A stretch of DNA of 64,000 nt from Balanoglossus misakiensis (taxonomy: Eukaryota; Animalia; Hemichordata): contig CM082587.2 of the NCBI GenBank assembly GCA_040954595.2, positions 11,897,262-11,961,261 of the forward strand, read 5' to 3'. The notes under the pieces were generated by a model. The model was not told the origin of the DNA. It was given only the letters and a program-made list of their open reading frames with translations, and searched no databases. The translations under genes and the position numbers were made by a program. Positions 6,001 to 28,200 of the stretch are shown in pieces (the first letter of the stretch is position 1; each line of letters begins with the position of its first letter).

Positions 6001-9000
6001 ATGGTCTTTAACCCTGTTTCAAATTAGAGTACTTTCTGCAATTTCAAGACAGATCTTACGTGCCATTGGAGAGCTCCATTGACTGGTCATTCATACTGTT
6101 TTCATTCATTCATTGCGGCATCAATATATTTTATCTATTCTAGCCAAAGAGCTTGGCACCTGTTGAAATGAACTCATCTGCTGTGGGCCAGTTTATTGGT
6201 GGCAGTTGAGCTGAGAAGAGCACCTTCCTTCCCGGCACGCCACCAAGTAAAGTTCCACGCCGCCCACCACAGATGCCAGCATTCATTCATGCGAGTGAGT
6301 GTAATTGCAAATTTGCCTATTCTAGATCTGTAATGGAAATGGAGAAAGTACCTTATATTTTCTGTAAAATAGACATTTAATTGGCAAGCCGTCCTGCATC
6401 AATTATGAATTGTGTACATGCACTAAAGCGCCCTCACTGCTGGGTGTGTTGTATGGTCTTTAACCCTGTTTCAAATTAGAGTACTTTCTGCAATTTCAAG
6501 ACAGATCTTACGTGCCATTGGAGAGCTCCATTGACTGGTCATTCATACTGTTTTCATTCATTCATTGCGGCATCAATATATTTTATCTATTCTAGCCAAA
6601 GAGCTTGGCACCTGTTGAAATGAACTCATCTGCTGTGGGCCAGTTTATTGGTGGCAGTTGAGCTGAGGAGAGCACCTTCCTTCCCGGCACGCCACCAAGT
6701 AAAGTTCCACGCCGCCCACCACAGATGCCAGCATTCATTCATGCGAGTGAGTGTAATTGCAAATTTGCCTATTCTAGATCTGTAATGGAAATGGAGAAAG
6801 TACCTTATATTTTCTGTAAAATAGACATTTAATTGGCAAGCCGTCCTGCATCAATTATGAATTGTGTACATGCACTAAAGCGCCCTCACTGCTGGGTGTG
6901 TTGTATGGTCTTTAACCCTGTTTCAAATTAGAGTACTTTCTGCAATTTCAAGACAGATCTTACGTGCCATTGGAGAGCTCCATTGACTGGTCATTCATAC
7001 TGTTTTCATTCATTCATTGCGGCATCAATATATTTTATCTATTCTAGCCAAAGAGCTTGGCACCTGTTGAAATGAACTCATCTGCTGTGGGCCAGTTTAT
7101 TGGTGGCAGTTGAGCTGAGGAGAGCACCTTCCTTCCCGGCACGCCACCAAGTAAAGTTCCACGCCGCCCACCACAGATGCCAGCATTCATTCATGCGAGT
7201 GAGTGTAATTGCAAATTTGCCTATTCTAGATCTGTAATGGAAATGGAGAAAGTACCTTATATTTTCTGTAAAATAGACATTTAATTGGCAAGCCGTCCTG
7301 CATCAATTATGAATTGTGTACATGCACTAAAGCGCCCTCACTGCTGGGTGTGTTGTATGGTCTTTAACCCTGTTTCAAATTAGAGTACTTTCTGCAATTT
7401 CAAGACAGATCTTACGTGCCATTGGAGAGCTCCATTGACTGGTCATTCATACTGTTTTCATTCATTCATTGCGGCATCAATATATTTTATGTATTCTAGC
7501 CAAAGAGCTTGGCACCTGTTGAAATGAACTCATCTGCTGTGGGCCAGTTTATTGGTGGCAGTTGAGCTGAGGAGAGCACCTTCCTTCCCGGCACGCCACC
7601 AAGTAAAGTTCCACGCCGCCCACCACAGATGCCAGCATTCATTCATGCGAGTGAGTGTAATTGCAAATTTGCCTATTCTAGATCTGTAATGGAAATGGAG
7701 AAAGTACCTTATATTTTCTGTAAAATAGACATTTAATTGGCAAGCCGTCCTGCATCAATTATTAATTGTGTACATGCACTAAAGCGCCCTCACTGCTGGG
7801 TGTGTTGTATGGTCTTTAACCCTGTTTCAAATTAGAGTACTTTCTGCAATTTCAAGACAGATCTTACGTGCCATTGGAGAGCTCCATTGACTGGTCATTC
7901 ATACTGTTTTCATTCATTCATTGCGGCATCAATATATTTTATCTATTCTAGCCAAAGAGCTTGGCACCTGTTGAAATGAACTCATCTGCTGTGGGCCAGT
8001 TTATTGGTGGCAGTTGAGCTGAGGAGAGCACCTTCCTTCCCGGCACGCCACCAAGTAAAGTTCCACGCCGCCCACCACAGATGCCAGCATTCATTCATGC
8101 GAGTGAGTGTAATTGCAAATTTGCCTATTCTAGAATTACGTGCCATTGGAGAGCTCCATTGACTGGTCATTCATACTGTTTTCATTCATTCATTGCGGCA
8201 TCAATATATTTTATCTATTCTAGCCAAAGAGCTTGGCACCTGTTGAAATGAACTCATCTGCTGTGGGCCAGTTTATTGGTGGCAGTTGAGCTGAGGAGAG
8301 CACCTTCCTTCCCGGCACGCCACCAAGTAAAGTTCCACGCCGCCCACCACAGATGCCAGCATTCATTCATGCGAGTGAGTGTAATTGCAAATTTGCCTAT
8401 TCTAGATCTGTAATGGAAATGGAGAAAGTACCTTATATTTTCTGTAAAATAGACATTTAATTGGCAAGCCGTCCTGCATCAATTATGAATTGTGTACATG
8501 CACTAAAGCGCCCTCACTGCTGGGTGTGTTGTATGGTCTTTAACCCTGTTTCAAATTAGAGTACTTTCTGCAATTTCAAGACAGATCTTACGTGCCATTG
8601 GAGAGCTCCATTGACTGGTCATTCATACTGTTTTCATTCATTCATTGCGGCATCAATATATTTTATCTATTCTAGCCAAAGAGCTTGGCACCTGTTGAAA
8701 TGAACTCATCTGCTGTGGGCCAGTTTATTGGTGGCAGTTGAGCTGAGGAGAGCACCTTCCTTCCCGGCACGCCACCAAGTAAAGTTCCACGCCGCCCACC
8801 ACAGATGCCAGCATTCATTCATGCGAGTGAGTGTAATTGCAAATTTGCCTATTCTAGAATCTTACGTGCCATTGGAGAGCTCCATTGACTGGTCATTCAT
8901 ACTGTTTTCATTCATTCATTGCGGCATCAATATATTTTATCTATTCTAGCCAAAGAGCTTGGCACCTGTTGAAATGAACTCATCTGCTGTGGGCCAGTTT

Positions 9001-12000
9001 ATTGGTGGCAGTTGAGCTGAGGAGAGCACCTTCCTTCCCGGCACGCCACCAAGTAAAGTTCCACGCCGCCCACCACAGATGCCAGCATTCATTCATGCGA
9101 GTGAGTGTAATTGCAAATTTGCCTATTCTAGATCTGTAATGGAAATGGAGAAAGTACCTTATATTTTCTGTAAAATAGACATTTAATTGGCAAGCCGTCC
9201 TGCATCAATTATTAATTGTGTACATGCACTAAAGCGCCCTCACTGCTGGGTGTGTTGTATGGTCTTTAACCCTGTTTCAAATTAGAGTACTTTCTGCAAT
9301 TTCAAGACAGATCTTACGTGCCATTGGAGAGCTCCATTGACTGGTCATTCATACTGTTTTCATTCATTCATTGCGGCATCAATATATTTTATCTATTCTA
9401 GCCAAAGAGCTTGGCACCTGTTGAAATGAACTCATCTGCTGTGGGCCAGTTTATTGGTGGCAGTTGAGCTGAGAAGAGCACCTTCCTTCCCGGCACGCCA
9501 CCAAGTAAAGTTCCACGCCGCCCACCACAGATGCCAGCATTCATTCATGCGAGTGAGTGTAATTGCAAATTTGCCTATTCTAGATCTGTAATGGAAATGG
9601 AGAAAGTACCTTATATTTTCTGTAAAATAGACATTTAATTGGCAAGCCGTCCTGCATCAATTATGAATTGTGTACATGCACTAAAGCGCCCTCACTGCTG
9701 GGTGTGTTGTATGGTCTTTAACCCTGTTTCAAATTAGAGTACTTTCTGCAATTTCAAGACAGATCTTACGTGCCATTGGAGAGCTCCATTGACTGGTCAT
9801 TCATACTGTTTTCATTCATTCATTGCGGCATCAATATATTTTATCTATTCTAGCCAAAGAGCTTGGCACCTGTTGAAATGAACTCATCTGCTGTGGGCCA
9901 GTTTATTGGTGGCAGTTGAGCTGAGGAGAGCACCTTCCTTCCCGGCACGCCACCAAGTAAAGTTCCACGCCGCCCACCACAGATGCCAGCATTCATTCAT
10001 GCGAGTGAGTGTAATTGCAAATTTGCCTATTCTAGATCTGTAATGGAAATGGAGAAAGTACCTTATATTTTCTGTAAAATAGACATTTAATTGGCAAGCC
10101 GTCCTGCATCAATTATGAATTGTGTACATGCACTAAAGCGCCCTCACTGCTGGGTGTGTTGTATGGTCTTTAACCCTGTTTCAAATTAGAGTACTTTCTG
10201 CAATTTCAAGACAGATCTTACGTGCCATTGGAGAGCTCCATTGACTGGTCATTCATACTGTTTTCATTCATTCATTGCGGCATCAATATATTTTATCTAT
10301 TCTAGCCAAAGAGCTTGGCACCTGTTGAAATGAACTCATCTGCTGTGGGCCAGTTTATTGGTGGCAGTTGAGCTGAGGAGAGCACCTTCCTTCCCGGCAC
10401 GCCACCAAGTAAAGTTCCACGCCGCCCACCACAGATGCCAGCATTCATTCATGCGAGTGAGTGTAATTGCAAATTTGCCTATTCTAGATCTGTAATGGAA
10501 ATGGAGAAAGTACCTTATATTTTCTGTAAAATAGACATTTAATTGGCAAGCCGTCCTGCATCAATTATGAATTGTGTACATGCACTAAAGCGCCCTCACT
10601 GCTGGGTGTGTTGTATGGTCTTTAACCCTGTTTCAAATTAGAGTACTTTCTGCAATTTCAAGACAGATCTTACGTGCCATTGGAGAGCTCCATTGACTGG
10701 TCATTCATACTGTTTTCATTCATTCATTGCGGCATCAATATATTTTATCTATTCTAGCCAAAGAGCTTGGCACCTGTTGAAATGAACTCATCTGCTGTGG
10801 GCCAGTTTATTGGTGGCAGTTGAGCTGAGAAGAGCACCTTCCTTCCCGGCACGCCACCAAGTAAAGTTCCACGCCGCCCACCACAGATGCCAGCATTCAT
10901 TCATGCGAGTGAGTGTAATTGCAAATTTGCCTATTCTAGAATCTTACGTGCCATTGGAGAGCTCCATTGACTGGTCATTCATACTGTTTTCATTCATTCA
11001 TTGCGGCATCAATATATTTTATCTATTCTAGCCAAAGAGCTTGGCACCTGTTGAAATGAACTCATCTGCTGTGGGCCAGTTTATTGGTGGCAGTTGAGCT
11101 GAGGAGAGCACCTTCCTTCCCGGGACGCCACCAAGTAAAGTTCCACGCCGCCCACCACAGATGCCAGCATTCATTCATGCGAGTGAGTGTAATTGCAAAT
11201 TTGCCTATTCTAGATTCTTACGTGCCATTGGAGAGCTCCATTGACTGGTCATTCATACTGTTTTCATTCATTCATTGCGGCATCAATATATTTTATCTAT
11301 TCTAGCCAAAGAGCTTGGCACCTGTTGAAATGAACTCATCTGCTGTGGGCCAGTTTATTGGTGGCAGTTGAGCTGAGGAGAGCACCTTCCTTCCCGGCAC
11401 GCCACCAAGTAAAGTTCCACGCCGCCCACCACAGATGCCAGCATTCATTCATGCGAGTGAGTGTAATTGCAAATTTGCCTATTCTAGATCTGTAATGGAA
11501 ATGGAGAAAGTACCTTATATTTTCTGTAAAATAGACATTTAATTGGCAAGCCGTCCTGCATCAATTATTAATTGTGTACATGCACTAAAGCGCCCTCACT
11601 GCTGGGTGTGTTGTATGGTCTTTAACCCTGTTTCAAATTAGAGTACTTTCTGCAATTTCAAGACAGATCTTACGTGCCATTGGAGAGCTCCATTGACTGG
11701 TCATTCATACTGTTTTCATTCATTCATTGCGGCATCAATATATTTTATCTATTCTAGCCAAAGAGCTTGGCACCTGTTGAAATGAACTCATCTGCTGTGG
11801 GCCAGTTTATTGGTGGCAGTTGAGCTGAGGAGAGCACCTTCCTTCCCGGCACGCCACCAAGTAAAGTTCCACGCCGCCCACCACAGATGCCAGCATTCAT
11901 TCATGCGAGTGAGTGTAATTGCAAATTTGCCTATTCTAGATCTGTAATGGAAATGGAGAAAGTACCTTATATTTTCTGTAAAATAGACATTTAATTGGCA

Positions 12001-13953
12001 AGCCGTCCTGCATCAATTATGAATTGTGTACATGCACTAAAGCGCCCTCACTGCTGGGTGTGTTGTATGGTCTTTAACCCTGTTTCAAATTAGAGTACTT
12101 TCTGCAATTTCAAGACAGATCTTACGTGCCATTGGAGAGCTCCATTGACTGGTCATTCATACTGTTTTCATTCATTCATTGCGGCATCAATATATTTTAT
12201 GTATTCTAGCCAAAGAGCTTGGCACCTGTTGAAATGAACTCATCTGCTGTGGGCCAGTTTATTGGTGGCAGTTGAGCTGAGGAGAGCACCTTCCTTCCCG
12301 GCACGCCACCAAGTAAAGTTCCACGCCGCCCACCACAGATGCCAGCATTCATTCATGCGAGTGAGTGTAATTGCAAATTTGCCTATTCTAGATCTGTAAT
12401 GGAAATGGAGAAAGTACCTTATATTTTCTGTAAAATAGACATTTAATTGGCAAGCCGTCCTGCATCAATTATTAATTGTGTACATGCACTAAAGCGCCCT
12501 CACTGCTGGGTGTGTTGTATGGTCTTTAACCCTGTTTCAAATTAGAGTACTTTCTGCAATTTCAAGACAGATCTTACGTGCCATTGGAGAGCTCCATTGA
12601 CTGGTCATTCATACTGTTTTCATTCATTCATTGCGGCATCAATATATTTTATCTATTCTAGCCAAAGAGCTTGGCACCTGTTGAAATGAACTCATCTGCT
12701 GTGGGCCAGTTTATTGGTGGCAGTTGAGCTGAGGAGAGCACCTTCCTTCCCGGCACGCCACCAAGTAAAGTTCCACGCCGCCCACCACAGATGCCAGCAT
12801 TCATTCATGCGAGTGAGTGTAATTGCAAATTTGCCTATTCTAGAATTACGTGCCATTGGAGAGCTCCATTGACTGGTCATTCATACTGTTTTCATTCATT
12901 CATTGCGGCATCAATATATTTTATCTATTCTAGCCAAAGAGCTTGGCACCTGTTGAAATGAACTCATCTGCTGTGGGCCAGTTTATTGGTGGCAGTTGAG
13001 CTGAGGAGAGCACCTTCCTTCCCGGCACGCCACCAAGTAAAGTTCCACGCCGCCCACCACAGATGCCAGCATTCATTCATGCGAGTGAGTGTAATTGCAA
13101 ATTTGCCTATTCTAGATCTGTAATGGAAATGGAGAAAGTACCTTATATTTTCTGTAAAATAGACATTTAATTGGCAAGCCGTCCTGCATCAATTATGAAT
13201 TGTGTACATGCACTAAAGCGCCCTCACTGCTGGGTGTGTTGTATGGTCTTTAACCCTGTTTCAAATTAGAGTACTTTCTGCAATTTCAAGACAGATCTTA
13301 CGTGCCATTGGAGAGCTCCATTGACTGGTCATTCATACTGTTTTCATTCATTCATTGCGGCATCAATATATTTTATCTATTCTAGCCAAAGAGCTTGGCA
13401 CCTGTTGAAATGAACTCATCTGCTGTGGGCCAGTTTATTGGTGGCAGTTGAGCTGAGGAGAGCACCTTCCTTCCCGGCACGCCACCAAGTAAAGTTCCAC
13501 GCCGCCCACCACAGATGCCAGCATTCATTCATGCGAGTGAGTGTAATTGCAAATTTGCCTATTCTAGATCTGTAATGGAAATGGAGAAAGTACCTTATAT
13601 TTTCTGTAAAATAGACATTTAATTGGCAAGCCGTCCTGCATCAATTATGAATTGTGTACATGCACTAAAGCGCCCTCACTGCTGGGTGTGTTGTATGGTC
13701 TTTAACCCTGTTTCAAATTAGAGTACTTTCTGCAATTTCAAGACAGATCTTACGTGCCATTGGAGAGCTCCATTGACTGGTCATTCATACTGTTTTCATT
13801 CATTCATTGCGGCATCAATATATTTTATCTATTCTAGCCAAAGAGCTTGGCACCTGTTGAAATGAACTCATCTGCTGTGGGCCAGTTTATTGGTGGCAGT
13901 TGAGCTGAGGAGAGCACCTTCCTTCCCGGCACGCCACCAAGTAAAGTTCCACG
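1..13953. repeat. Tandem satellite array, left arm; mix of 452-bp (MITE-filled) and 272/274/275-bp (empty) monomers
   Basis: TGAAATGAACTCATCTG recurs at 1, 453, 727, 1001, 1453, 1725... (periods 452, 274, 274, 452, 272). Monomers are near-identical and head-to-tail. The array breaks after ...GTAAAGTTCCACG at 13953. Confidence 0.98.
161..345. mobile_element. MITE-like non-autonomous element (representative copy; present in every 452-bp monomer)
   Basis: 161-188 AGATCTGTAATGGAAATGGAGAAAGTAC matches the reverse complement of 318-345 (AGATCTGTCTTGAAATTGCAGAAAGTAC) at 23/28. AGATCT is repeated 179 bp apart. The segment is absent from short monomers. TSD length is ambiguous (AT, GATC or AGATCT) because the site is palindromic. 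Confidence 0.85.
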
Positions 13954-15746
13954 TGCATTCCTGGCCCTGGTTTTATTTATGTTTACAGACAATATTGCAT
14001 TTTTGTACAAGTATTTTAATCAACTATAAATTTTGAATGTGTCATTTACCTGAACCGGTCATGTTGACCAGAATGATACATTTCTGCCTTCACTCACCCT
14101 ATAAATATGTGATTGAGACATAGGTCATTTGCATAAGCTAACATACCAGAAAGTAAGCATATCTGTTGTTTTCCCTGTGTCACTGCCATCAAAGTAAAAA
14201 TTAGACGTTGTGTAGAGCAAACTCCAATTTTTTGTTCTCAATAAACATGGATGAATTACATAGAATGTGTTTGTTGTTTACAGTCTTTAAATGACACATT
14301 AGATTATGCACTTTACAAAACGTTTCTGAGAAACAAGTGACTAACTAGTTTCTTTCCACTGTGGCCAACGTGGTTCACTGTTTGTGTCAGAATCTCTCTG
14401 TTTTGCAAGGATTTTGAAATCATAGTGGTGACATGCATAGTGAAAATCAGCTACTTTCAAATGTCCGTCATGTTCATGCTGTAATTGAATTTTCAAAGCT
14501 GGGCTGGCGTGTTTTTTCTTATTTACATAAGTATCACACTTTATACATGTATCTTCATGGGGTTTTTTGAGTCCCGTATTTAGGTCCTCTCTCACAATTT
14601 TACGAAATATCGTATAACTGACAGTTGTTCTTCCCAGAAGAGATTGGTTGGTTATGAACTCTCGGTGTAACTGCGATATACTGTGGTCCGGCGCCAGGTA
14701 CGGTTTAAATCGAGGATTCCTGCAGTAGTGAGATTCTACAATTCTGTGCCTGCGTACGTGTTCAGTGATATCAGTCAGCAAATTTGGATTGAGTTTCCGA
14801 CGATGCCCTTTGTGTCGGCCCCTTGCATCTGGCATCAGACCAGTAAAGTTCCATGTGCATTCCTGGCCCTGGTTTTATTTATGTTTACAGACAATATTGC
14901 ATTTTTGTACAAGTATTTTAATCAACTATAAATTTTGAATGTGTCATTTACCTGAACCGGTCATGTTGACCAGAATGATACATTTCTGCCTTCACTCACC
15001 CTATAAATATGTGATTGAGACATAGGTCATTTGCATAAGCTAACATACCAGAAAGTAAGCATATCTGTTGTTTTCCCTGTGTCACTGCCATCAAAGTAAA
15101 AATTAGACGTTGTGTAGAGCAAACTCCAATTTTTTGTTCTCAATAAACATGGATGAATTACATAGAATGTGTTTGTTGTTTACAGTCTTTAAATGACACA
15201 TTAGATTATGCACTTTACAAAACGTTTCTGAGAAACAAGTGACTAACTAGTTTCTTTCCACTGTGGCCAACGTGGTTCACTGTTTGTGTCAGAATCTCTC
15301 TGTTTTGCAAGGATTTTGAAATCATAGTGGTGACATGCATAGTGAAAATCAGCTACTTTCAAATGTCCGTCATGTTCATGCTGTAATTGAATTTTCAAAG
15401 CTGGGCTGGCGTGTTTTTTCTTATTTACATAAGTATCACACTTTATACATGTATCTTCATGGGGTTTTCTGAGTCCCGTATTTAGGTCCTCTCTCACAAT
15501 TTTACGAAATATCGTATAACTGACAGTTGTTCTTCCCAGAAGAGATTGGTTGGTTATGAACTCTCGGTGTAACTGCGATATACTGTGGTCCGGCGCCAGG
15601 TACGGTTTAAATCGAGGATTCCTGCAGTAGTGAGATTCTACAATTCTGTGCCTGCGTACGTGTTCAGTGATATCAGTCAGCAAATTTGGATTGAGTTTCC
15701 GACGATGCCCTTTGTGTCGGCCCCTTGCATCTGGCATCAGACCAGT
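13940..15746. repeat. 902-bp tandem duplication (two copies)
   Basis: GTAAAGTTCCA(C/T)GTGCATTCCTGG occurs at 13941 and 14843. Both copies end ...GGCATCAGACCAGT. Two substitutions noticed between copies. AGT microhomology at the junction. Confidence 0.95.
14341..14835 (-). pseudogene. 5'-truncated duplicate of the transposase N-half ORF (its last 164 codons)
   Basis: Identical to the C-terminal 164 aa of 15243-16205 except R->K (GLRKP/GLKKP). Created by the 902-bp duplication. Confidence 0.85.
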
Positions 15747-16199
15747 TGAACAGTGCATCATTTTGCTTAGAACGGTTCTAGTCCGCCTCTCACTAATGCC
15801 AAATAATTTCAGGAATGCATTTTTGCAGACAGTAACCGTTTCACCGCCTTCATTCACCAGGTGATAACGAACCGATTTCTTGTGTGACTTCATCTGTATA
15901 TCCATCAGTTTGTAGAGCATCAAGTTCTGTTCATTATACACGCGACCATCAAAATATTTTCTCGTGGTGCCTAAAACATGCGTACTCCCAAGCTTCCGCA
16001 GACAATTCCCTTGAACGCAGGCGCATTCCAAGGAAAGACTGTCAATATCTGGAAAAGGGCGATTTTTCCTTGGTTTTTGTCTCGGACACGTCTTTTTAGA
16101 ATTCCTACGTGGCTTGTTGGCTCGAGCTGACAGTTCGGTTCTGCGTTGCTGCCACACAGGAATGGGTTCCCACGCATAAGCAACTCCCCGGCAGGCCAT
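15243..16199 (-). CDS. Sola1-like transposase N-terminal half (Cys/His-rich, putative DNA-binding), 318 aa from first ATG
   Basis: Motif series CxC..C, VCKNAFLKLFGIS, DARGRH, ESHYCR..YL, YTIFRKI, KPHEDTCIKCD, H..H...A matches the region that normally precedes the catalytic core in Sola1-type transposases. The ORF is intact. Minus-strand AATAAA candidate near 14875. Confidence 0.75.
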   Translation of the reverse strand: MACRGVAYAWEPIPVWQQRRTELSARANKPRRNSKKTCPRQKPRKNRPFPDIDSLSLECACVQGNCLRKLGSTHVLGTTRKYFDGRVYNEQNLMLYKLMDIQMKSHKKSVRYHLVNEGGETVTVCKNAFLKLFGISERRTRTVLSKMMHCSTGLMPDARGRHKGHRRKLNPNLLTDITEHVRRHRIVESHYCRNPRFKPYLAPDHSISQLHREFITNQSLLGRTTVSYTIFRKIVREDLNTGLRKPHEDTCIKCDTYVNKKKHASPALKIQLQHEHDGHLKVADFHYACHHYDFKILAKQRDSDTNSEPRWPQWKETS

Positions 16200-16370
16200 G
16201 GTCACAGCTGAAGTATTTGTTCAAGTACTGACTGACTAAACGCGGCATGGAACAAACGAACGAACGAACGAACGACTTCACGTTCGGAAAAAAAATCGTT
16301 GCGAGCTGTTGGGTGCCTCTATAGTTGTCGGCAACCGTTCTTTTTTATTGCTAAACAATGCTGTCAGAGC
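16200..16370. promoter_or_regulatory. Putative bidirectional promoter between the two transposase halves
   Basis: 171 bp between divergent ATGs (16199 on -, 16371 on +). Contains ACTG x2-3, (GAAC)n at ~16258-16273 and TTCGGAA at 16283. Function is inferred from geometry only. Confidence 0.45.
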
Positions 16371-17384
16371 ATGGAAGGTGTGGTGGAAAACGAACAGAGG
16401 TTTTGTACGACCAACGATTGGATGGTGCTACATATGGACTTCCACAAGTCATTGCCGGTTCCTAAACTCAGCTCTGAAGACTTTTACTTTAAATCGAAAT
16501 TGCAAATGAAGCTCCTTGGAATTTACAACGGGACAACGGAAAAGATGCATTGTTATGTATGGACAGAGCTCGATAGCAGAAAGTCTCCCGATGAAGTTAT
16601 TACCTGTCTAAATCACTTTTTTTATAACTCGGGTGTGACCAGCAGACATGCAGTTATTTACAGCGACAACTGCCGTGCCGAATTCAAGTGTGGGAAGTTA
16701 ATGTTTTACTATGACTATCTGTTACGAAAGGGCGTGTTTCGACGAATTGACTATAAAACTCTTGTGGCTGGACACACGTACTCCACCTGTGACCGAGTTT
16801 TTGCGTCCATTGAAAGGCATGCAAGTCGTTTCCAGAGTATAGAGACACCTCACGATTGGACATCTGTGATTCGAGGATCTTCTCTGAATGGGAACATTGG
16901 AGTTACGGAGATGACTCACAGAGACTTTTTCAATTATTCTGATTTCCTGAAAAATGAGTACGTTGTGCGTTATGCAGATACAAACAATGTAACTTTTTAC
17001 TACCAAGCCATGCACTATTTTAATTTTGGAGAAGGAGAAAGGCTTGATACCGACGGCAACCTCAGAACATTTAGTCATGCAGATAAAGTTTGGGTGAGAA
17101 CATCTCTAGATCCAAGCGAGACCCCGATTGTAGTCGACTTTAGAAAGAAGAAGCAGAACCGGCGTTTACAAGATTGTACGCTGAACAAACTTTATCAGGA
17201 ACGTCGACCACTGGCGAGCAAAGTTTGGCGGGATCTTCAGAGTTTAGCCAAAAATTACCTGTCTCCGGAGGCAATAGAATTTTATAGGAATCTACCGCTT
17301 CAGGAGAGTAGTGGCACCTCTGCAGACCCGTACGCCTTTCATGATGATGACGACGACGATGATGATGATATGGGCGGTGGTTGA
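16371..17384 (+). CDS. Sola1-like transposase catalytic (DDD) half, 337 aa from first in-frame ATG, acidic tail
   Basis: MDFHKSLPVPKL...FYFKSKL...YVWTE...DEVITCL...IYSDNC...LVAGHTYSTCDRVFASIE: three Asp in the typical Sola-like context (D-F, SDNC, GHTxxxCD). Ends in a poly-Asp run. Confidence 0.82.
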   Translation: MEGVVENEQRFCTTNDWMVLHMDFHKSLPVPKLSSEDFYFKSKLQMKLLGIYNGTTEKMHCYVWTELDSRKSPDEVITCLNHFFYNSGVTSRHAVIYSDNCRAEFKCGKLMFYYDYLLRKGVFRRIDYKTLVAGHTYSTCDRVFASIERHASRFQSIETPHDWTSVIRGSSLNGNIGVTEMTHRDFFNYSDFLKNEYVVRYADTNNVTFYYQAMHYFNFGEGERLDTDGNLRTFSHADKVWVRTSLDPSETPIVVDFRKKKQNRRLQDCTLNKLYQERRPLASKVWRDLQSLAKNYLSPEAIEFYRNLPLQESSGTSADPYAFHDDDDDDDDDMGGG

Positions 17385-17484
17385 ACAAACTGTCCTTTTC
17401 ATGACGACAGTGATTTTGGATATTTGATGTGCGTGCACAGTTTATATGTAATATTTTCACACGAACGAGTTTTGACTGAATTTG

Positions 17485-17570
17485 ATTAAAGAATGTACTC
17501 GATAATTAACAAATGTGCTGAATCGTGGTTATTATGTTGTTAATTTTTGTTTGTTTGTTTGTTTGTTTGT
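17485..17570 (+). terminator. Candidate poly(A) signal with downstream GT-rich tract
   Basis: ATTAAA at 17485-17490, ~100 bp after the stop, followed by (TTTG)n at ~17546-17570. Confidence 0.4.
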
Positions 17571-17702
17571 AAACAATTTCCGTTCATTCAACTGGCTACA
17601 AAGTTGGATTTTTGTACTGGGAAGCGATAAACTCGCACATCAAAACCGGGGAGACTCGATCATTTTTCCCTGCAGGTAGCCTGAAAAGCACCCGGGCAGA
17701 GA

Positions 17703-17776
17703 TTACGTCATATATGGTCCACTTTAATACGAAATTATGCAAATGTGACATTTCACGGAAACGGCGTATATAAAAG
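17703..17776 (+). promoter_or_regulatory. Pol II promoter of the SET gene: CRE-like site, octamer and TATA box
   Basis: TTACGTCA 17703-17710, ATGCAAAT 17737-17744, TATAAAAG 17769-17776, ~90 bp upstream of ATG 17868. Confidence 0.6.
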
Positions 17777-17867
17777 CGACCCTGGGCTATTGTTCGGAAT
17801 GCGTCATCGACGAGAGAGTGACTGATAATTCTTCTACCTCGAGTCAACCATTCTGTATATACTGAAC

Positions 17868-19194
17868 ATGGCTAGCTGGCGCAGGAAGAGACAAGGCAAT
17901 GTGCGGTCTGTAATCAACGAACGGCACCGCTCAGTTCAGTGTCCCTTTCTTCAAAAGTGGATCGGTGAGCAATTGGTATTTTCAGGTCGTTCAGAGGATG
18001 AAGTCCAGTCCAGTACTGTATTTGAGAGCTACAAATGTTGGGTTGAAAACTATTCGTCGGCGGACAATCAAGTAATGATTATGGTTACTAAAGCTCGATT
18101 TTTCAAGGTGAGAATGATCGCATTTTTCTTCCCCCCCCCCCTCCCTCCCCCAAGGGACTCGTTTTCTGTCTCTTTTAAACCTGTAACTTAACGAAAAGGA
18201 AGTTTTTCACATATCTCTTTGTTGACACTATAGCAATTTGGAGCGCGGATGCTTCAAGAGAATAGCGTTACCAAATCAAAGTCGGCCGGGGTTAATATTT
18301 ATAGAGGTGTTCGTCTGAAAGCTGGTTCGCGAAGAATCTCAACGGGGAAACCTGAGCACAGTGTACTTCAGACCAGGGCAAGGGCATTTCTTGATGACGC
18401 CAGCGTGACCGTTCCGATCGAGGTAAGAATGGTGTTTTGTTTGGACTAGGACAATAGAACGTTGCAATGAGTGTGTCAATGGGTGTCCAAGTGCAAACGT
18501 GGTCGGCTTCTGTCCACAAATGCCATTAATTTTAGGCAGGATTTATAAAATTGTCAATGAAGAATACAAAAATGAAAAACAATAGTTAATAGCAAACGGG
18601 TAGGATTGCAAGGGCTTGTAAAACGGTACACACTGTACCAGGAAGTTTGCAACACTAATGAAGAATGTATATGATATATTTAGGTGAGAACTGTTCGCGA
18701 TCGCCGGGACGCAGGACGGTGCGCGTTTTCGACGAGGGATCTTCAAGCCTGGAACGTCGTCTGCGAATACCGGGGCACGGTTATTAGCGTTGAAGAAGCT
18801 AGTCGGCGTGATGAACTTTACAGGGCAGAGGGGAAACGACCACGCATGTTTCATCTCTACATTGGAAAGAGACACGTTGTGTGAGTGTATCACTTAGTCG
18901 AATATATGGTCATATATTGCAAAGCATCTGTCGAAATAGAAAACGTAATATTGTCTATATTTTCCTCATTAACGCAGCATTGACGGATACGATGTCCCAG
19001 CCGGTGAAGAAAATTTAGCGGGCCTAATAAATCACAGTCAGCAGAACGCCAACTTGGTACCGGTTCGGATCGGAGAGCGCCTGGTTTTCTTTGCAACCAG
19101 GAATCTTTGTCAGGGAGTAGAGCTTTTGTATGATTACGGTGACGGGGGTGAAGAGGATTTCTTCAGTGGTTCTCAAACTTTTCCTGAAAATTAA
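17868..19194 (+). CDS. Winged-helix-like + SET-domain lysine methyltransferase (SETD8/PR-Set7-like), 4 exons, 280 aa
   Basis: Exons 17868-18107, 18234-18422, 18684-18880, 18978-19194 with GT-AG introns (GTGAGA, GTAAGA, GTGAGT donors) join in frame (843 nt). SET motifs: GRCAFSTRD, VCEYRG, IDG, AGLINHS, FFATRNL..GVELLYDYGD. The N-terminus (VFESYKCW...FFKQF...IYRGVRLK) resembles an RFX/D5-type winged helix. Confidence 0.85.
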
Positions 19195-20101
19195 GGCATT
19201 AACACATCAACGCTTCGGGATGTCGTAACGGCGGCAAGGCGGGGGGGGGGGGGGGGGGGCGTGAAAATGTTTGTATCAGGAACAAAATTCCCGTGCAAAT
19301 CACCTTGATCCGGGTGGGTGGACTATTCGCGACAAATGTTGAAATCATACAAAGCATTTTACTTAATTAACCCATTTTTTTCATTTATTTGTTTACAGTT
19401 TACAACGTCATAGAGAAGTTGAACTAGAGACTGGATCAGCGTGGGTGACACCATAGTACACCAATGTTTTCTTCAGTTTGATTCAATTGTAATTTAAAAC
19501 TGAGATTGCCTAACGCTTTCCCAGATTTTTTTAACCACTGAGAAACTGTGGGTTTTTTTCTGGGTTTTGGTGCGAGGTGATCTCAGTCAGTGGTGTTAAT
19601 TTAATTAATCATTTTCTTTTCCTATTTACGTCGACTGAAATGTATTTTGATAGGTGATAGTCATACCATAAAAAAATCTTACGGCGCGACTGCCAAAATG
19701 TACATTTATTTGTCCGTTCCAAGTTATTTTGTGTATGTGTGATGGGTGCCGGTGACTGTGCAGGGTTGATTTCCCTAGAGCGACTGTTATATTCGTTTTC
19801 CAACGATGATGAATTTACATGTTATTTGCTTGGCATTTTGACGCAGAGACACTTCTGAAAACACAAACCTATTAATTATGCCACGGGTGTAAATTGATCA
19901 CATTAAAAGAGGCTTTAGACGTTTGCCGCGAGCTCCTGGTGGGCAGAATCTTGTCAGCCCAAATTTGACTATAAGTACATAGCCAATGATGTGACGCTCT
20001 CCCACATCCTTCGCCGCGCCTTTTCGCTGATTTACAGCATCTTGCGTAAACACTGTCATTTGATCTTGCTTGGCAGAAGTCAACTTGCTCTATACTACAT
20101 T

Positions 20102-20467
20102 ATGGCGGCCAAGCTCAACTGCATATCAGATAATGCCAAGGAGCGTTTGAGAGGCATCCTCGCCAGAAGGAGTCGCGTTTCCGGTGACTGTGTGCTCTGG
20201 ACGGGTGCAGCTTGTCGAAACGGCTATGGCTCTATTACGTTCAGAGATGAGAACACTCTAACCGCCTATGTCCATCACATTGCACTCCTAATTAACGGAG
20301 TGCAATTGGTGGGCAGGCGGTTAGAGTGTTCTCATCTTTGCAACGAAAAGCTATGCATCCGCCCAGAGCACATTGTCCAGGAAACGCGACTCCTAAACAT
20401 TTCACGAAAGACGTGCTTTAAATCCCCAAAAGGGGAGTGTCACCACGATCCCAGGTGCCTAAGGTGA
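20102..20467 (+). CDS. His-Cys box (His-Me finger) homing-endonuclease-like protein, 121 aa from ATG
   Basis: CVLWTG...GYG...VHH...SHLCNEKLCIRPEHIVQE...NISRKTC...CHHDPRC matches the zinc-binding loop pattern of I-PpoI-type His-Cys box nucleases. Confidence 0.85.
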   Translation: MAAKLNCISDNAKERLRGILARRSRVSGDCVLWTGAACRNGYGSITFRDENTLTAYVHHIALLINGVQLVGRRLECSHLCNEKLCIRPEHIVQETRLLNISRKTCFKSPKGECHHDPRCLR

Positions 20468-20758
20468 GTAATCCTCTTCTCATTTGATATGTATTGTGTG
20501 ACCCTGCAGTTGAAACGCTTTCATCAATAATTTGCGGCGCGTGGGTAATCTCGGTGTTATTGACAATGCAGCCGGCCCAAACATTTTTAAATTAACACTG
20601 TTTCTGACTGTATTAACGAAATGTCCAATTTGCAAGTAGCCTATAGACAACCCTTTTGAATGAGTTTTGTCTCGTTGAGATTTTATACATAAGGAACAAT
20701 CTAGATTTATTTTAGAAGACACTGTTCTTTTAAAACAGCTAGCATAATACAGCTAAAT

Positions 20759-21126
20759 TTCGGAATTTCCGGACAATTTTCGGAATTCCTTTTAAATTTG
20801 AGAAATTTTTCATCAGATATAAGTGTTACTATTTATTGGACATGTTTTTATCATTGTTTACTTTTTAAGGTCATTCTCATCCCCCCCCCCCCCCCCCAAA
20901 AAAAAGCCGCTTTAGGCTTCATGTTCAGTAAAAAATCTGGAAAGTTCAGCTGAATTTTACACTGATCACACATTTTTGGGAAGGTCTGGCGCAAAATAAA
21001 GGATGACAAATGTAAATCTAATGTCACATTTGTAAACCTCTAAGTATTGTACACTCATTCTATTAAGTATATGCAAATAGTACGGATAATTTTTTCGGAA
21101 TGTGGAATTCCGAAATTAGTTCGGAA
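20759..21126. repeat. Inverted repeat pair and TTCGGAA motif cluster
   Basis: 20767-20789 TTCCGGACAATTTTCGGAATTCC matches the reverse complement of 21104-21126 (TTCCGAACTAATTTCGGAATTCC) at 20/23. TTCGGAA or its complement at 20759, 20779, 21094, 21108, 21120. Confidence 0.6.
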
Positions 21127-21450
21127 CGTGTTAGCAGTGAAGAGATCACCACTGAGGGTTGGAAGGCCTTGCCAGAAATTAACGCGTAAAGTACGCCCTC
21201 ACAGGCCATGTAAACAAGGTCAAATAAGGCCGTCTGGCAAACGAATGATTAATTCAACGCGCCATTTGAGCCGAGCTGAGTTGGTCTGAGTTGCGTATCA
21301 CACAGACTTAGGCTGAATGTCAGTGGAGTAACCAGTCCGTTTTAGATTTACCAATGATGTGAATTTAATTTCTTCACCCAGAAAAACAGAACACAACTTG
21401 TCTGCAACATGATGCTGGAGGTGACACATGACAGAGAAGTGGATCCGCGT

Positions 21451-21787
21451 TGTCAACACAGATGCCAGCATTCAAAAGGGGAGTGCCACCTGCTAAAATC
21501 AACTCATCTGCTGTTGGCCCATTTTACCTGTGGCAACTGTTCAGAGGAGACAACGTTTATTCCGTGCAAGCCAACACGCAATGTTGGGGTCTACCTGTCA
21601 ACACAGATGCAAGCATTCATGTGAGTGAGTATCAGGACTGACCTTGTTTTGCTGAATAATTCATAATGCCTATTTTAGAATTCTTAGAGGCATTTGGAGT
21701 TCATTGCCTGGTCAACCAAACTACACCCCTTAACAGCTGAAACAAAATGCGTATTGTGTTCATTCATTCATTGCTTCAATATATATA
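21451..21787 (+). repeat. Diverged copy of the satellite monomer inside the island
   Basis: Colinear matches: CACCTG..AAAT.AACTCATCTGCTGT.GGCC, GAGGAGA, CACAGATGC.AGCATTCAT, GAGTGAGT, TGCCTATT.TAGAATTCTTA, CATTG.CTGGTCA, TTCATTCATTCATTGC..TCAATATAT. Includes a 24-bp direct repeat at 21451 and 21596. Confidence 0.88.
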
Positions 21788-22253
21788 GGCAACATGAGTA
21801 TCAAGTAGCACTATTTGTTTACGATTGTATTCATGAAAACTTCCCACTAACAATTCCACAGTTAATATTGAACACATTTATCCAACAAGGTCAAAAGAAA
21901 AAGGGAATCTTCTGGTTCCAAAATACGCCACAAATGTGGGTCAACATACAGTGAAATATTATGGTGCTCAAATATGCAACATATCAAATCTGTCTCATCA
22001 AAGTCATGCTTTAAAAAAGAATTGAAAAGGTATTATTTATCCATTTGACTGCTGTATTTTCAGAAGGAAAACAAACTGAATTTGGTTTTTCATGTACAAA
22101 TATTTTCTGTAAAATAGACATTTAATTGGCAAGCCGTCCTGCATCAATTATTAATTGTGTACATGCACTAAAGCGCCCTCACTGCTGGGTGTGTTGTATG
22201 GTCTTTAACCCTGTTTCAAATTAGAGTACTTTCTGCAATTTCAAGACAGATCT

Positions 22254-25200
22254 TACGTGCCATTGGAGAGCTCCATTGACTGGTCATTCATACTGTTTTC
22301 ATTCATTCATTGCGGCATCAATATATTTTATGTATTCTAGCCAAAGAGCTTGGCACCTGTTGAAATGAACTCATCTGCTGTGGGCCAGTTTATTGGTGGC
22401 AGTTGAGCTGAGGAGAGCACCTTCCTTCCCGGCACGCCACCAAGTAAAGTTCCACGCCGCCCACCACAGATGCCAGCATTCATTCATGCGAGTGAGTGTA
22501 ATTGCAAATTTGCCTATTCTAGATCTGTAATGGAAATGGAGAAAGTACCTTATATTTTCTGTAAAATAGACATTTAATTGGCAAGCCGTCCTGCATCAAT
22601 TATGAATTGTGTACATGCACTAAAGCGCCCTCACTGCTGGGTGTGTTGTATGGTCTTTAACCCTGTTTCAAATTAGAGTACTTTCTGCAATTTCAAGACA
22701 GATCTTACGTGCCATTGGAGAGCTCCATTGACTGGTCATTCATACTGTTTTCATTCATTCATTGCGGCATCAATATATTTTATCTATTCTAGCCAAAGAG
22801 CTTGGCACCTGTTGAAATGAACTCATCTGCTGTGGGCCAGTTTATTGGTGGCAGTTGAGCTGAGGAGAGCACCTTCCTTCCCGGCACGCCACCAAGTAAA
22901 GTTCCACGCCGCCCACCACAGATGCCAGCATTCATTCATGCGAGTGAGTGTAATTGCAAATTTGCCTATTCTAGAATTACGTGCCATTGGAGAGCTCCAT
23001 TGACTGGTCATTCATACTGTTTTCATTCATTCATTGCGGCATCAATATATTTTATCTATTCTAGCCAAAGAGCTTGGCACCTGTTGAAATGAACTCATCT
23101 GCTGTGGGCCAGTTTATTGGTGGCAGTTGAGCTGAGGAGAGCACCTTCCTTCCCGGCACGCCACCAAGTAAAGTTCCACGCCGCCCACCACAGATGCCAG
23201 CATTCATTCATGCGAGTGAGTGTAATTGCAAATTTGCCTATTCTAGATCTGTAATGGAAATGGAGAAAGTACCTTATATTTTCTGTAAAATAGACATTTA
23301 ATTGGCAAGCCGTCCTGCATCAATTATGAATTGTGTACATGCACTAAAGCGCCCTCACTGCTGGGTGTGTTGTATGGTCTTTAACCCTGTTTCAAATTAG
23401 AGTACTTTCTGCAATTTCAAGACAGATCTTACGTGCCATTGGAGAGCTCCATTGACTGGTCATTCATACTGTTTTCATTCATTCATTGCGGCATCAATAT
23501 ATTTTATCTATTCTAGCCAAAGAGCTTGGCACCTGTTGAAATGAACTCATCTGCTGTGGGCCAGTTTATTGGTGGCAGTTGAGCTGAGGAGAGCACCTTC
23601 CTTCCCGGCACGCCACCAAGTAAAGTTCCACGCCGCCCACCACAGATGCCAGCATTCATTCATGCGAGTGAGTGTAATTGCAAATTTGCCTATTCTAGAA
23701 TCTTACGTGCCATTGGAGAGCTCCATTGACTGGTCATTCATACTGTTTTCATTCATTCATTGCGGCATCAATATATTTTATCTATTCTAGCCAAAGAGCT
23801 TGGCACCTGTTGAAATGAACTCATCTGCTGTGGGCCAGTTTATTGGTGGCAGTTGAGCTGAGGAGAGCACCTTCCTTCCCGGCACGCCACCAAGTAAAGT
23901 TCCACGCCGCCCACCACAGATGCCAGCATTCATTCATGCGAGTGAGTGTAATTGCAAATTTGCCTATTCTAGATCTGTAATGGAAATGGAGAAAGTACCT
24001 TATATTTTCTGTAAAATAGACATTTAATTGGCAAGCCGTCCTGCATCAATTATTAATTGTGTACATGCACTAAAGCGCCCTCACTGCTGGGTGTGTTGTA
24101 TGGTCTTTAACCCTGTTTCAAATTAGAGTACTTTCTGCAATTTCAAGACAGATCTTACGTGCCATTGGAGAGCTCCATTGACTGGTCATTCATACTGTTT
24201 TCATTCATTCATTGCGGCATCAATATATTTTATCTATTCTAGCCAAAGAGCTTGGCACCTGTTGAAATGAACTCATCTGCTGTGGGCCAGTTTATTGGTG
24301 GCAGTTGAGCTGAGAAGAGCACCTTCCTTCCCGGCACGCCACCAAGTAAAGTTCCACGCCGCCCACCACAGATGCCAGCATTCATTCATGCGAGTGAGTG
24401 TAATTGCAAATTTGCCTATTCTAGATCTGTAATGGAAATGGAGAAAGTACCTTATATTTTCTGTAAAATAGACATTTAATTGGCAAGCCGTCCTGCATCA
24501 ATTATGAATTGTGTACATGCACTAAAGCGCCCTCACTGCTGGGTGTGTTGTATGGTCTTTAACCCTGTTTCAAATTAGAGTACTTTCTGCAATTTCAAGA
24601 CAGATCTTACGTGCCATTGGAGAGCTCCATTGACTGGTCATTCATACTGTTTTCATTCATTCATTGCGGCATCAATATATTTTATCTATTCTAGCCAAAG
24701 AGCTTGGCACCTGTTGAAATGAACTCATCTGCTGTGGGCCAGTTTATTGGTGGCAGTTGAGCTGAGGAGAGCACCTTCCTTCCCGGCACGCCACCAAGTA
24801 AAGTTCCACGCCGCCCACCACAGATGCCAGCATTCATTCATGCGAGTGAGTGTAATTGCAAATTTGCCTATTCTAGATCTGTAATGGAAATGGAGAAAGT
24901 ACCTTATATTTTCTGTAAAATAGACATTTAATTGGCAAGCCGTCCTGCATCAATTATGAATTGTGTACATGCACTAAAGCGCCCTCACTGCTGGGTGTGT
25001 TGTATGGTCTTTAACCCTGTTTCAAATTAGAGTACTTTCTGCAATTTCAAGACAGATCTTACGTGCCATTGGAGAGCTCCATTGACTGGTCATTCATACT
25101 GTTTTCATTCATTCATTGCGGCATCAATATATTTTATCTATTCTAGCCAAAGAGCTTGGCACCTGTTGAAATGAACTCATCTGCTGTGGGCCAGTTTATT

Positions 25201-28200
25201 GGTGGCAGTTGAGCTGAGGAGAGCACCTTCCTTCCCGGCACGCCACCAAGTAAAGTTCCACGCCGCCCACCACAGATGCCAGCATTCATTCATGCGAGTG
25301 AGTGTAATTGCAAATTTGCCTATTCTAGATCTGTAATGGAAATGGAGAAAGTACCTTATATTTTCTGTAAAATAGACATTTAATTGGCAAGCCGTCCTGC
25401 ATCAATTATGAATTGTGTACATGCACTAAAGCGCCCTCACTGCTGGGTGTGTTGTATGGTCTTTAACCCTGTTTCAAATTAGAGTACTTTCTGCAATTTC
25501 AAGACAGATCTTACGTGCCATTGGAGAGCTCCATTGACTGGTCATTCATACTGTTTTCATTCATTCATTGCGGCATCAATATATTTTATCTATTCTAGCC
25601 AAAGAGCTTGGCACCTGTTGAAATGAACTCATCTGCTCTGGGCCAGTTTATTGGTGGCAGTTGAGCTGAGGAGAGCACCTTCCTTCCCGGCACGCCACCA
25701 AGTAAAGTTCCACGCCGCCCACCACAGATGCCAGCATTCATTCATGCGAGTGAGTGTAATTGCAAATTTGCCTATTCTAGATCTGTAATGGAAATGGAGA
25801 AAGTACCTTATATTTTCTGTAAAATAGACATTTAATTGGCAAGCCGTCCTGCATCAATTATGAATTGTGTACATGCACTAAAGCGCCCTCACTGCTGGGT
25901 GTGTTGTATGGTCTTTAACCCTGTTTCAAATTAGAGTACTTTCTGCAATTTCAAGACAGATCTTACGTGCCATTGGAGAGCTCCATTGACTGGTCATTCA
26001 TACTGTTTTCATTCATTCATTGCGGCATCAATATATTTTATCTATTCTAGCCAAAGAGCTTGGCACCTGTTGAAATGAACTCATCTGCTGTGGGCCAGTT
26101 TATTGGTGGCAGTTGAGCTGAGAAGAGCACCTTCCTTCCCGGCACGCCACCAAGTAAAGTTCCACGCCGCCCACCACAGATGCCAGCATTCATTCATGCG
26201 AGTGAGTGTAATTGCAAATTTGCCTATTCTAGAATCTTACGTGCCATTGGAGAGCTCCATTGACTGGTCATTCATACTGTTTTCATTCATTCATTGCGGC
26301 ATCAATATATTTTATCTATTCTAGCCAAAGAGCTTGGCACCTGTTGAAATGAACTCATCTGCTGTGGGCCAGTTTATTGGTGGCAGTTGAGCTGAGGAGA
26401 GCACCTTCCTTCCCGGGACGCCACCAAGTAAAGTTCCACGCCGCCCACCACAGATGCCAGCATTCATTCATGCGAGTGAGTGTAATTGCAAATTTGCCTA
26501 TTCTAGATTCTTACGTGCCATTGGAGAGCTCCATTGACTGGTCATTCATACTGTTTTCATTCATTCATTGCGGCATCAATATATTTTATCTATTCTAGCC
26601 AAAGAGCTTGGCACCTGTTGAAATGAACTCATCTGCTGTGGGCCAGTTTATTGGTGGCAGTTGAGCTGAGGAGAGCACCTTCCTTCCCGGCACGCCACCA
26701 AGTAAAGTTCCACGCCGCCCACCACAGATGCCAGCATTCATTCATGCGAGTGAGTGTAATTGCAAATTTGCCTATTCTAGATCTGTAATGGAAATGGAGA
26801 AAGTACCTTATATTTTCTGTAAAATAGACATTTAATTGGCAAGCCGTCCTGCATCAATTATTAATTGTGTACATGCACTAAAGCGCCCTCACTGCTGGGT
26901 GTGTTGTATGGTCTTTAACCCTGTTTCAAATTAGAGTACTTTCTGCAATTTCAAGACAGATCTTACGTGCCATTGGAGAGCTCCATTGACTGGTCATTCA
27001 TACTGTTTTCATTCATTCATTGCGGCATCAATATATTTTATCTATTCTAGCCAAAGAGCTTGGCACCTGTTGAAATGAACTCATCTGCTGTGGGCCAGTT
27101 TATTGGTGGCAGTTGAGCTGAGGAGAGCACCTTCCTTCCCGGCACGCCACCAAGTAAAGTTCCACGCCGCCCACCACAGATGCCAGCATTCATTCATGCG
27201 AGTGAGTGTAATTGCAAATTTGCCTATTCTAGAATTACGTGCCATTGGAGAGCTCCATTGACTGGTCATTCATACTGTTTTCATTCATTCATTGCGGCAT
27301 CAATATATTTTATCTATTCTAGCCAAAGAGCTTGGCACCTGTTGAAATGAACTCATCTGCTGTGGGCCAGTTTATTGGTGGCAGTTGAGCTGAGGAGAGC
27401 ACCTTCCTTCCCGGCACGCCACCAAGTAAAGTTCCACGCCGCCCACCACAGATGCCAGCATTCATTCATGCGAGTGAGTGTAATTGCAAATTTGCCTATT
27501 CTAGATCTGTAATGGAAATGGAGAAAGTACCTTATATTTTCTGTAAAATAGACATTTAATTGGCAAGCCGTCCTGCATCAATTATGAATTGTGTACATGC
27601 ACTAAAGCGCCCTCACTGCTGGGTGTGTTGTATGGTCTTTAACCCTGTTTCAAATTAGAGTACTTTCTGCAATTTCAAGACAGATCTTACGTGCCATTGG
27701 AGAGCTCCATTGACTGGTCATTCATACTGTTTTCATTCATTCATTGCGGCATCAATATATTTTATCTATTCTAGCCAAAGAGCTTGGCACCTGTTGAAAT
27801 GAACTCATCTGCTGTGGGCCAGTTTATTGGTGGCAGTTGAGCTGAGGAGAGCACCTTCCTTCCCGGCACGCCACCAAGTAAAGTTCCACGCCGCCCACCA
27901 CAGATGCCAGCATTCATTCATGCGAGTGAGTGTAATTGCAAATTTGCCTATTCTAGATCTGTAATGGAAATGGAGAAAGTACCTTATATTTTCTGTAAAA
28001 TAGACATTTAATTGGCAAGCCGTCCTGCATCAATTATGAATTGTGTACATGCACTAAAGCGCCCTCACTGCTGGGTGTGTTGTATGGTCTTTAACCCTGT
28101 TTCAAATTAGAGTACTTTCTGCAATTTCAAGACAGATCTTACGTGCCATTGGAGAGCTCCATTGACTGGTCATTCATACTGTTTTCATTCATTCATTGCG

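Follow-up and report, generated by a model that had tools for sequence, protein, structure and literature searches.

Among described systems, the one closest in plan to the locus reported here is KolobokP, which couples an internal region to an end unit bearing inverted repeats of its own, has solo copies of that end unit and forms multimers, according to the portions of its description drawn on here (PMC9587614). Other features have counterparts elsewhere, and the accounts of these were likewise seen in part: tandem arrays have arisen from MITEs (miniature inverted-repeat transposable elements) as well as other non-autonomous elements (PMC9659126), and SET methyltransferases are conserved accessory cargo of HarbingerS, oomycete MuDR and red-algal Plavaka PAG2 (PMC12730594, bioRxiv 10.1101/2025.02.11.637652). 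The subject of this report is a 64,000-nucleotide stretch of the Balanoglossus misakiensis genome (contig CM082587.2; hereafter the window, whose spliceosomal introns and nearest named relative, a hemichordate, point to an animal host), consisting of one tandem array broken by a single ~8.1-kb island that carries four genes. We think it probable, with real reservations, that the window holds a composite-like, Sola-like transposon with a split transposase and a SET gene, that its end unit (B) was amplified together with a spacer (A) into a satellite, and that excision of B is ongoing or recent. The genes, the linkage of three of them, the boundaries of B, the types of junction left in its place and an inverted repeat in the nuclease gene are observed; whatever is said of activity is inferred.

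Cutting the window at a fixed anchor gave 141 intervals: 94 of 452 bp, 16 of 272 bp, 27 of 274 bp, 3 of 275 bp, and the island. The 452-bp unit is made of a 271-bp spacer A and a 177-bp unit B that is flanked on each side by AT and terminates in 33-bp imperfect terminal inverted repeats (TIRs; ends CTGT...ACAG). B occupies 94 of the 140 ordinary units, in keeping with the claim of an initial annotation of this DNA that a MITE sits in most monomers; it is missing from the other 46 and accounts for ~30% of the array. Because no two units differ by more than 2 single-nucleotide polymorphisms (SNPs; >99% identity) and stretches of as many as 14 units are repeated, the array is, judged by this uniformity, a recent amplification. 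Its right arm (41.7 kb) contains no second gene island. An Rfam search gave no match. Precise loss of B would leave a 273-bp unit with AGATCT, a plain site found in none of the 46 empty units, whose junctions instead fall into four types (16, 14, 13 and 3 copies). The simplest reading is that the amplified unit originally had B and that at least four excisions, each sealed by imprecise repair, removed it. Some SNPs are common to B-containing and empty units, two single-copy full units having variants characteristic of the empty class; crossover, or a restoration of B, may lie behind this. Compared with other satellites derived from transposable elements, this array differs in that it seems to keep a gene-bearing unit together with several excision junctions (PMC9659126, in the part consulted).

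B is not confined to the AGATCT site of the satellite. An (AT)n tract directly precedes its left end in 5 contigs and directly follows its right end in 1, so that B is, on the evidence of its flanks, a dispersed mobile unit with an AT target, found outside the satellite site too; these contigs come from two runs of one sample, possibly the window's own source and hence not independent of it. A blunt insertion between A and T would formally amount to the same thing as AT duplication. We discarded a GATC duplication with TGT...ACA ends, as both the (AT)n flanks and the junctions disagree with it.

All four frames that had been called intact are indeed open: an N-terminal (Tnp-N) and a catalytic (Tnp-C) transposase half, a spliced SET gene and a nuclease. 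A first scan of metagenomes for relatives found nothing, and a scan with an alignment of the transposase sub-clade yielded 21 loci at ~35% transposase identity to the window; reversed queries gave no matches. Tnp-N lies beside Tnp-C in 9 of the 21 loci, SET is present in 9, and both accompany Tnp-C in 5 (L004 and L006-L009). L006-L009 are 97.7-99.7% identical and were therefore counted once, which with L004 places Tnp-N, Tnp-C and SET together in two independent families; most other related contigs are shorter than 5.3 kb, too short to show linkage. The N halves end at the same C-terminal break point in 4 related loci, and L004 and L008 share with the window the positions of the three SET introns. 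The suggestion that the genes belong to one element rather than to nested insertions thus holds for both transposase halves and SET, which recur together, but not for the nuclease, which was found in none of the 21 loci. Nor is gene order kept: the halves are convergent in the relatives and divergent in the window. In the L010 family Tnp-C is followed by either SET or Tnp-N, and at L010:1402-2217 the SET gene lacks its second and third introns and forms one continuous frame.

One related family also resembles the window element at its ends. L006-L009 are versions of one 13.65-kb unit with differing start points; the two termini of L007 share a 28-bp overlap, and those of L008 each bear a copy of a direct repeat (97% identical), with differing DNA upstream. 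The end repeat consists of a 301-bp stretch followed by a 168-bp unit (B') that has AT to its left and right and inverted repeats of 31 bp; no such unit arose in 5 shuffles. A 180-bp AT-flanked unit in L001 was not counted as an analog of B, since it lies inside a longer palindrome. A perfect short palindrome stands upstream of the terminal repeat of L008 (positions 15-48).

With KolobokP, as far as the consulted portions of its description go (PMC9587614), the element shares a direct-repeat end unit with its own inverted repeats (B; B' in L007-L009), solo end units, (end-internal)n multimers and end-unit excision with altered junctions; an I-PpoI-like His-Me nuclease with the same Cys/His pattern is a further likeness, found in the window and in none of the 21 related loci. 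It differs in having a shorter end unit (168-177 bp versus 450/660 bp), C...G termini with AT duplicated (versus RR...YY with a 3-5 bp duplication), SET cargo and an array of >140 units. The transposase of KolobokP itself is a Kolobok-type DDD/E enzyme with C/DxxH and a zinc finger between the second and third acidic residues, whereas that of the window is DUF7869, compact and split. The words 'hairpin' and 'satellite' are both absent from the main text of the KolobokP paper (PMC9587614). In sum, the window element is not KolobokP and misses two features of Sola1; we take it for a variant that would work like KolobokP.

Tnp-C matches Pfam DUF7869 (1e-14); Tnp-N has no Pfam match and pairs with the N halves of fused DUF7869 relatives (E to 7e-24), proteins of 500-800 amino acids (aa) that contain both halves. 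From a likeness of motifs we take the transposase to be most likely Sola1. In the predicted model of Tnp-C (predicted local distance difference test, pLDDT, 87), the conserved D23, D99 and D141 sit in a compact RNase H fold whose closest structural matches are integrases and Mos1 (best Z 9.3, root-mean-square deviation 2.9, 129 residues); the D99-D141 gap is just 41 residues and the model has no insertion domain. Among the matches listed (best 150 of 3054), the 11 best are 190-376 aa long and lack the N half. A quick tree of 116 rows sets the window within an 11-row clade of short proteins (support 99), and in a careful tree of 36 hand-picked rows, which leaves out 20 scattered short rows considered below, a branch with support 100/99 separates 14 split rows from the others. 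Neither Tnp-N nor the nuclease had a relative in word-based protein searches. A sister-clade catalytic domain (P0008) is led by a PHD-like Cys/His pattern, recognised by eye, in place of the N half. Scans of viral contigs confirmed nothing, and a viral origin is unsupported. With the Sola superfamily (PMC3845634, PMC3627910, in the parts consulted) the element shares the two halves, both carried by the fused DUF7869 relatives, the DDD triad and ~30-bp inverted repeats. The two departures from Sola1 are a transposase of 318 + 337 aa on opposite strands, versus a single frame of ~630 aa, and, provided that B is the element's end, AT beside B versus a 4-bp AWWT duplication (same sources). Compared by eye with the published Sola2 alignment, the transposase has other motifs around each of the three acidic residues.

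The SET gene product joins an N-terminal domain, conserved in the relatives, to a SETD8-like SET domain, which exons 3 and 4 both match. Exon 4 and, at 1.6e-8, a relative's contiguous SET frame have SETD8 among their top solved matches, and KMT2C/D comes first for exon 3. The NHS and C-terminal Tyr motifs are present, and the Arg before NHS is replaced in window and relatives alike. Searching the exons separately gave no profile or fold match to a winged helix, and a single-sequence model of exon 1 reached pLDDT 52; the winged-helix (D5/RFX-like) character proposed for the N-terminal domain, for which there is a likeness of pattern, was confirmed by no tool. HarbingerS, MuDR and Plavaka PAG2 share SET cargo and differ in transposase superfamily and host, and the parts of their accounts consulted describe neither composite ends nor satellite multimers.

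The nuclease matches PF05551 (2e-13) and aligns with I-PpoI (PDB 1a73; E 0.002) at the active-site SHLC with its catalytic His, at Glu and Asn, and at the zinc-binding Cys/His residues. It differs from I-PpoI in being a free-standing gene with a shorter C-terminus and a self-complementary coding sequence. The arms of its inverted repeat pair at 90 Watson-Crick, 5 G-U, 1 A-C and 3 other positions, with bulges and a longest perfect stem of 23 bp; codons of the family's CxxW motif pair with those of PxH, and the SHLC codons with those of the strand that precedes the active site. The predicted folding energy is -196.7 kcal/mol (z -15.5), matched by 0 of 100 shuffles. Against 200 synonymous recodings of the same protein z is -12.7, the best recoding reaching -120.6 versus -191.6 for the sense strand (antisense -178.6), and equal windows of the other three genes fold at -74 to -110. 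Since the protein sequence alone does not account for the pairing, selection or repeated template switching is needed to explain it; the repeat may act as RNA or as DNA. An antisense protein from the hairpin was rejected because the reverse frames have stops. A possible 46-nt intron (20464-20509) begins at the last codon of the nuclease and would barely alter the protein, and the DNA upstream of the gene (19826-20074) has ~3x the island contig depth, so that another repeat must contain it too. In one diverged contig, SET exon 4 has one stop and otherwise mostly synonymous changes, and the contig joins DNA 466 bp upstream of the nuclease, hence a modest sign that SET and nuclease are linked in this lineage.

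The limits of the gene-bearing unit can be proposed on the KolobokP plan (Table 1): after the B at 13570-13746 it would open with 205 bp of A and close at a diverged copy of A followed by AGAATTCT, where B would have been lost. Its left end, placed at the MITE site by the initial annotation, in fact joins ~205 bp into a monomer, ~20 nt beyond an AATAAA on the Tnp-N strand (spotted after the fact). The monomer homolog said to lie inside the island is real (117 identities in 155 aligned positions; score 123, best of 300 shuffles 36). Taken at first for an internal copy of the element's target, it is likely the cassette's own end after excision of B, its junction matching that of three 275-bp empty units. 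The satellite reads better as the element's own multimer than as something it targets, with the empty monomers looking like excision products.

That diverged copy of A, with its empty-unit junction, also bears on a rival reading in which a split-transposase/SET transposon, already truncated, entered a satellite of an unrelated MITE by insertion or recombination and was copied along, the nuclease being a separate capture. Such a passenger would explain why neither island junction falls at a boundary of B, why ~95 bp of array is absent between the two junctions, and why the island collects insertions (a nested MITE, a LINE-like remnant); the sheer abundance of B in the array, a contig that carries non-B letters onward at 22100 and an end unit unlike that of the relatives in sequence also fit it. 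Against it stand, besides the internal junction, a contig in which diverged A-like sequence joins the same left start of the cassette (joint 21573 to 14846), another joining a B-type left repeat to island position 21186, and the same kind of AT-flanked short TIR unit at the relative's ends. We consider this rival unlikely.

On the right, AGAATTCT is followed by the start of another A-like unit, a broken remnant without a Pfam match, which resembles the 3' end of a CR1/L2-type long interspersed nuclear element (LINE), and then B from position 28 on. The initial annotation argued that the island and the MITE share a terminus at the same monomer site. B 28-177 does indeed close the island, and at the usual site, yet this is weak evidence, because B is so abundant and the right junction has three forms across the window and two contigs; lying behind the LINE-like remnant as well, the claimed right terminus is unsafe. 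It is nonetheless one of the points that would suit a simple TIR element targeting the AGATCT of a pre-existing satellite, with B as its deletion derivative and the internal monomer as captured target; the form of B (short left end, long right end) and the joint at 21186 suit it too. The complete lack of precise empty sites, B within (AT)n, the LINE-like DNA before the right junction, and a uniformity that makes occupancy a matter of amplification rather than of 94 insertions all count against such an element, and we regard it as improbable.

Several other joints were seen. The B-type left repeat joined at 21186 lies beside the repeat's AAAGTAC core and is possibly a second, longer B-family element. 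At 21355-21790 contigs show tandem diverged-A units (joints 21784 to 21487 and 21473) and a further form without 395 bp (21354 to 21750), so the genome contains related arrays. Joints from 16879, 17235, 18702 and 19071 to 22249 (run X2) were rejected as DNA rearrangements; all are at GATC and resemble proximity-ligation products. Loose contig ends at 20756 (4 contigs) and 21133 (7 contigs) mark the nested 396-bp MITE, which is independent and dispersed, and which, like the nuclease hairpin and a 902-bp tandem duplication, adds to what was annotated initially. The first copy of the duplication contains a 5'-truncated Tnp-N (14835-14341); the duplication starts at a short microhomology ~13 bp into the satellite and is seemingly common to most island copies.

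Several copies of the island are suggested by the depth of the 902-bp duplication, ~2x that of the rest of the island (run X1), and by the SET region, where the window form is in the minority and contig variants depart from it at 12 sites. A monomer-to-island ratio of ~100:1 in the low-depth runs X3/X4 is a mere hint, contig depths being capped and uneven. Multiple copies, and four frames kept open within a very homogeneous array, could also be expected of a host-domesticated module in which intact genes are kept to serve a functional (e.g. centromeric) satellite; the shuffled gene order and broken copies among the relatives, typical of mobile elements, and the diverged SET copy with a stop tell against it, and we hold it to be very improbable.

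Table 1. Features of the window, with positions counted from its first nucleotide
Feature	Position	Strand
Left arm of the array; A units with or without B, at most 2 SNPs apart	1..13953	+
B, 177 bp, flanked by AT; probable left limit of the gene-bearing unit	13570..13746	+
Initial ~205 bp of spacer A, adjoining the gene cassette	13749..13953	+
902-bp tandem duplication, 1 difference in 891 compared bases	13942..15747	
Transposase N-terminal half (Tnp-N), 318 aa, predicted DNA-binding, Cys/His motifs	15243..16199	-
171-bp spacer between the divergent transposase halves, bidirectional promoter predicted from sequence	16200..16370	
Transposase catalytic half (Tnp-C), 337 aa, compact RNase H fold, D23/D99/D141	16371..17384	+
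SET gene, 280 aa; four exons (17868-18107, 18234-18422, 18684-18880, 18978-19194)	17868..19194	+
I-PpoI-type His-Cys box (His-Me finger) nuclease, 121 aa	20102..20467	+
Near-perfect 227-nt inverted repeat across the nuclease's conserved coding motifs; predicted 93-pair hairpin	20168..20394	+
Separate nested MITE, 396 bp, CTA...TAG ends, CAG duplicated	20739..21134	
Diverged copy of spacer A, 3' part; the gene-bearing unit probably ends here on the right	21470..21676	+
AGAATTCT, matching the junction of three 275-bp empty units; likely footprint of excised B	21677..21684	+
Broken remnant, similar to a CR1/L2-type LINE 3' end	21780..22050	+
B positions 28-177, left inverted repeat largely missing; the array resumes	22100..22249	+
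Right arm of the array	22250..64000	+

Under the favoured reading, a composite-like transposon whose end unit and spacer became the satellite, Tnp-N would bind the inverted repeats of B and Tnp-C would cut, so that B alone, or a B-cassette-B unit, could move into AT sites. Excision of B within the array would leave the imprecise junctions, and excision with unequal repair between neighbours would lengthen and homogenise the array. The SET protein may mark the element's chromatin, and the nuclease may make cuts within or close to the repeat unit and so promote copying through repair, as has been suggested for KolobokP, while the hairpin in its mRNA would keep nuclease output low. On this sequence evidence an array-driving role of the element is plausible. 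A chemistry that forms hairpins on the flanks during excision fits the junctions, but the predicted Tnp-C model has no insertion domain, and snap-back repair would fit equally.

A stronger version, which we advance tentatively and think rather unlikely, is that the element makes and maintains its own satellite: the transposase would excise B, the nuclease recut those sites that were emptied precisely, SET set the chromatin, and the nuclease limit itself through a Dicer- or Drosha-type hairpin. Repair from neighbours would then restore recut sites, so that none but mutated junctions survive, resembling homing resistance alleles. The lack of precise empty sites fits homing; yet four junction types are few, imprecise repair is ordinary, and the empty B site is a mere 6-bp palindrome.

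Several observations weigh against the favoured reading itself. The four junction types may represent just four events, and we saw no complete copy flanked by a target duplication, which leaves the mobilisation of B by this transposase to indirect argument. The AT duplication disagrees with the 4-bp duplications reported for Sola1 and Sola2. The end-unit architecture was seen in just one related family, and neither B and B' nor A and the relative's repeat share sequence (p 0.13-0.99). The internal A copy is only ~75% identical to A, and the right part of the island is a mosaic of nested insertions with a variable junction. The 20 further short rows of the quick tree are scattered among fused ones; they are probably partial frames, and short length alone is no proof of a split. 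Finally, the nuclease was absent from all 21 related loci by tblastn, motif scan and a local sensitive search, extended by Pfam on 89 frames of L008, L004 and L010 and covering four full-length units; we infer that it is a later, lineage-specific passenger.

Our literature search, with Repbase Reports and subscription journals outside its coverage, returned no description of this transposon family or of such a nuclease hairpin, and within the literature searched every ingredient has precedent except the combination and the self-complementary nuclease gene. If true, the favoured reading would mean that the composite-like, multimer-forming design of KolobokP arose a second time, independently, in another transposase lineage, and would bring a satellite array, excision scars and candidate enzymes together within 64 kb. 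Such a locus makes two ideas testable: that multimers grow through the action of protein-guided nucleases borne by transposons, a proposal called unconfirmed in PMC13565253, and that satellites can be actively built by their parent element. The encoding of conserved nuclease motifs by mutually complementary DNA is an unusual dual-coding solution, and may be a built-in safety catch.

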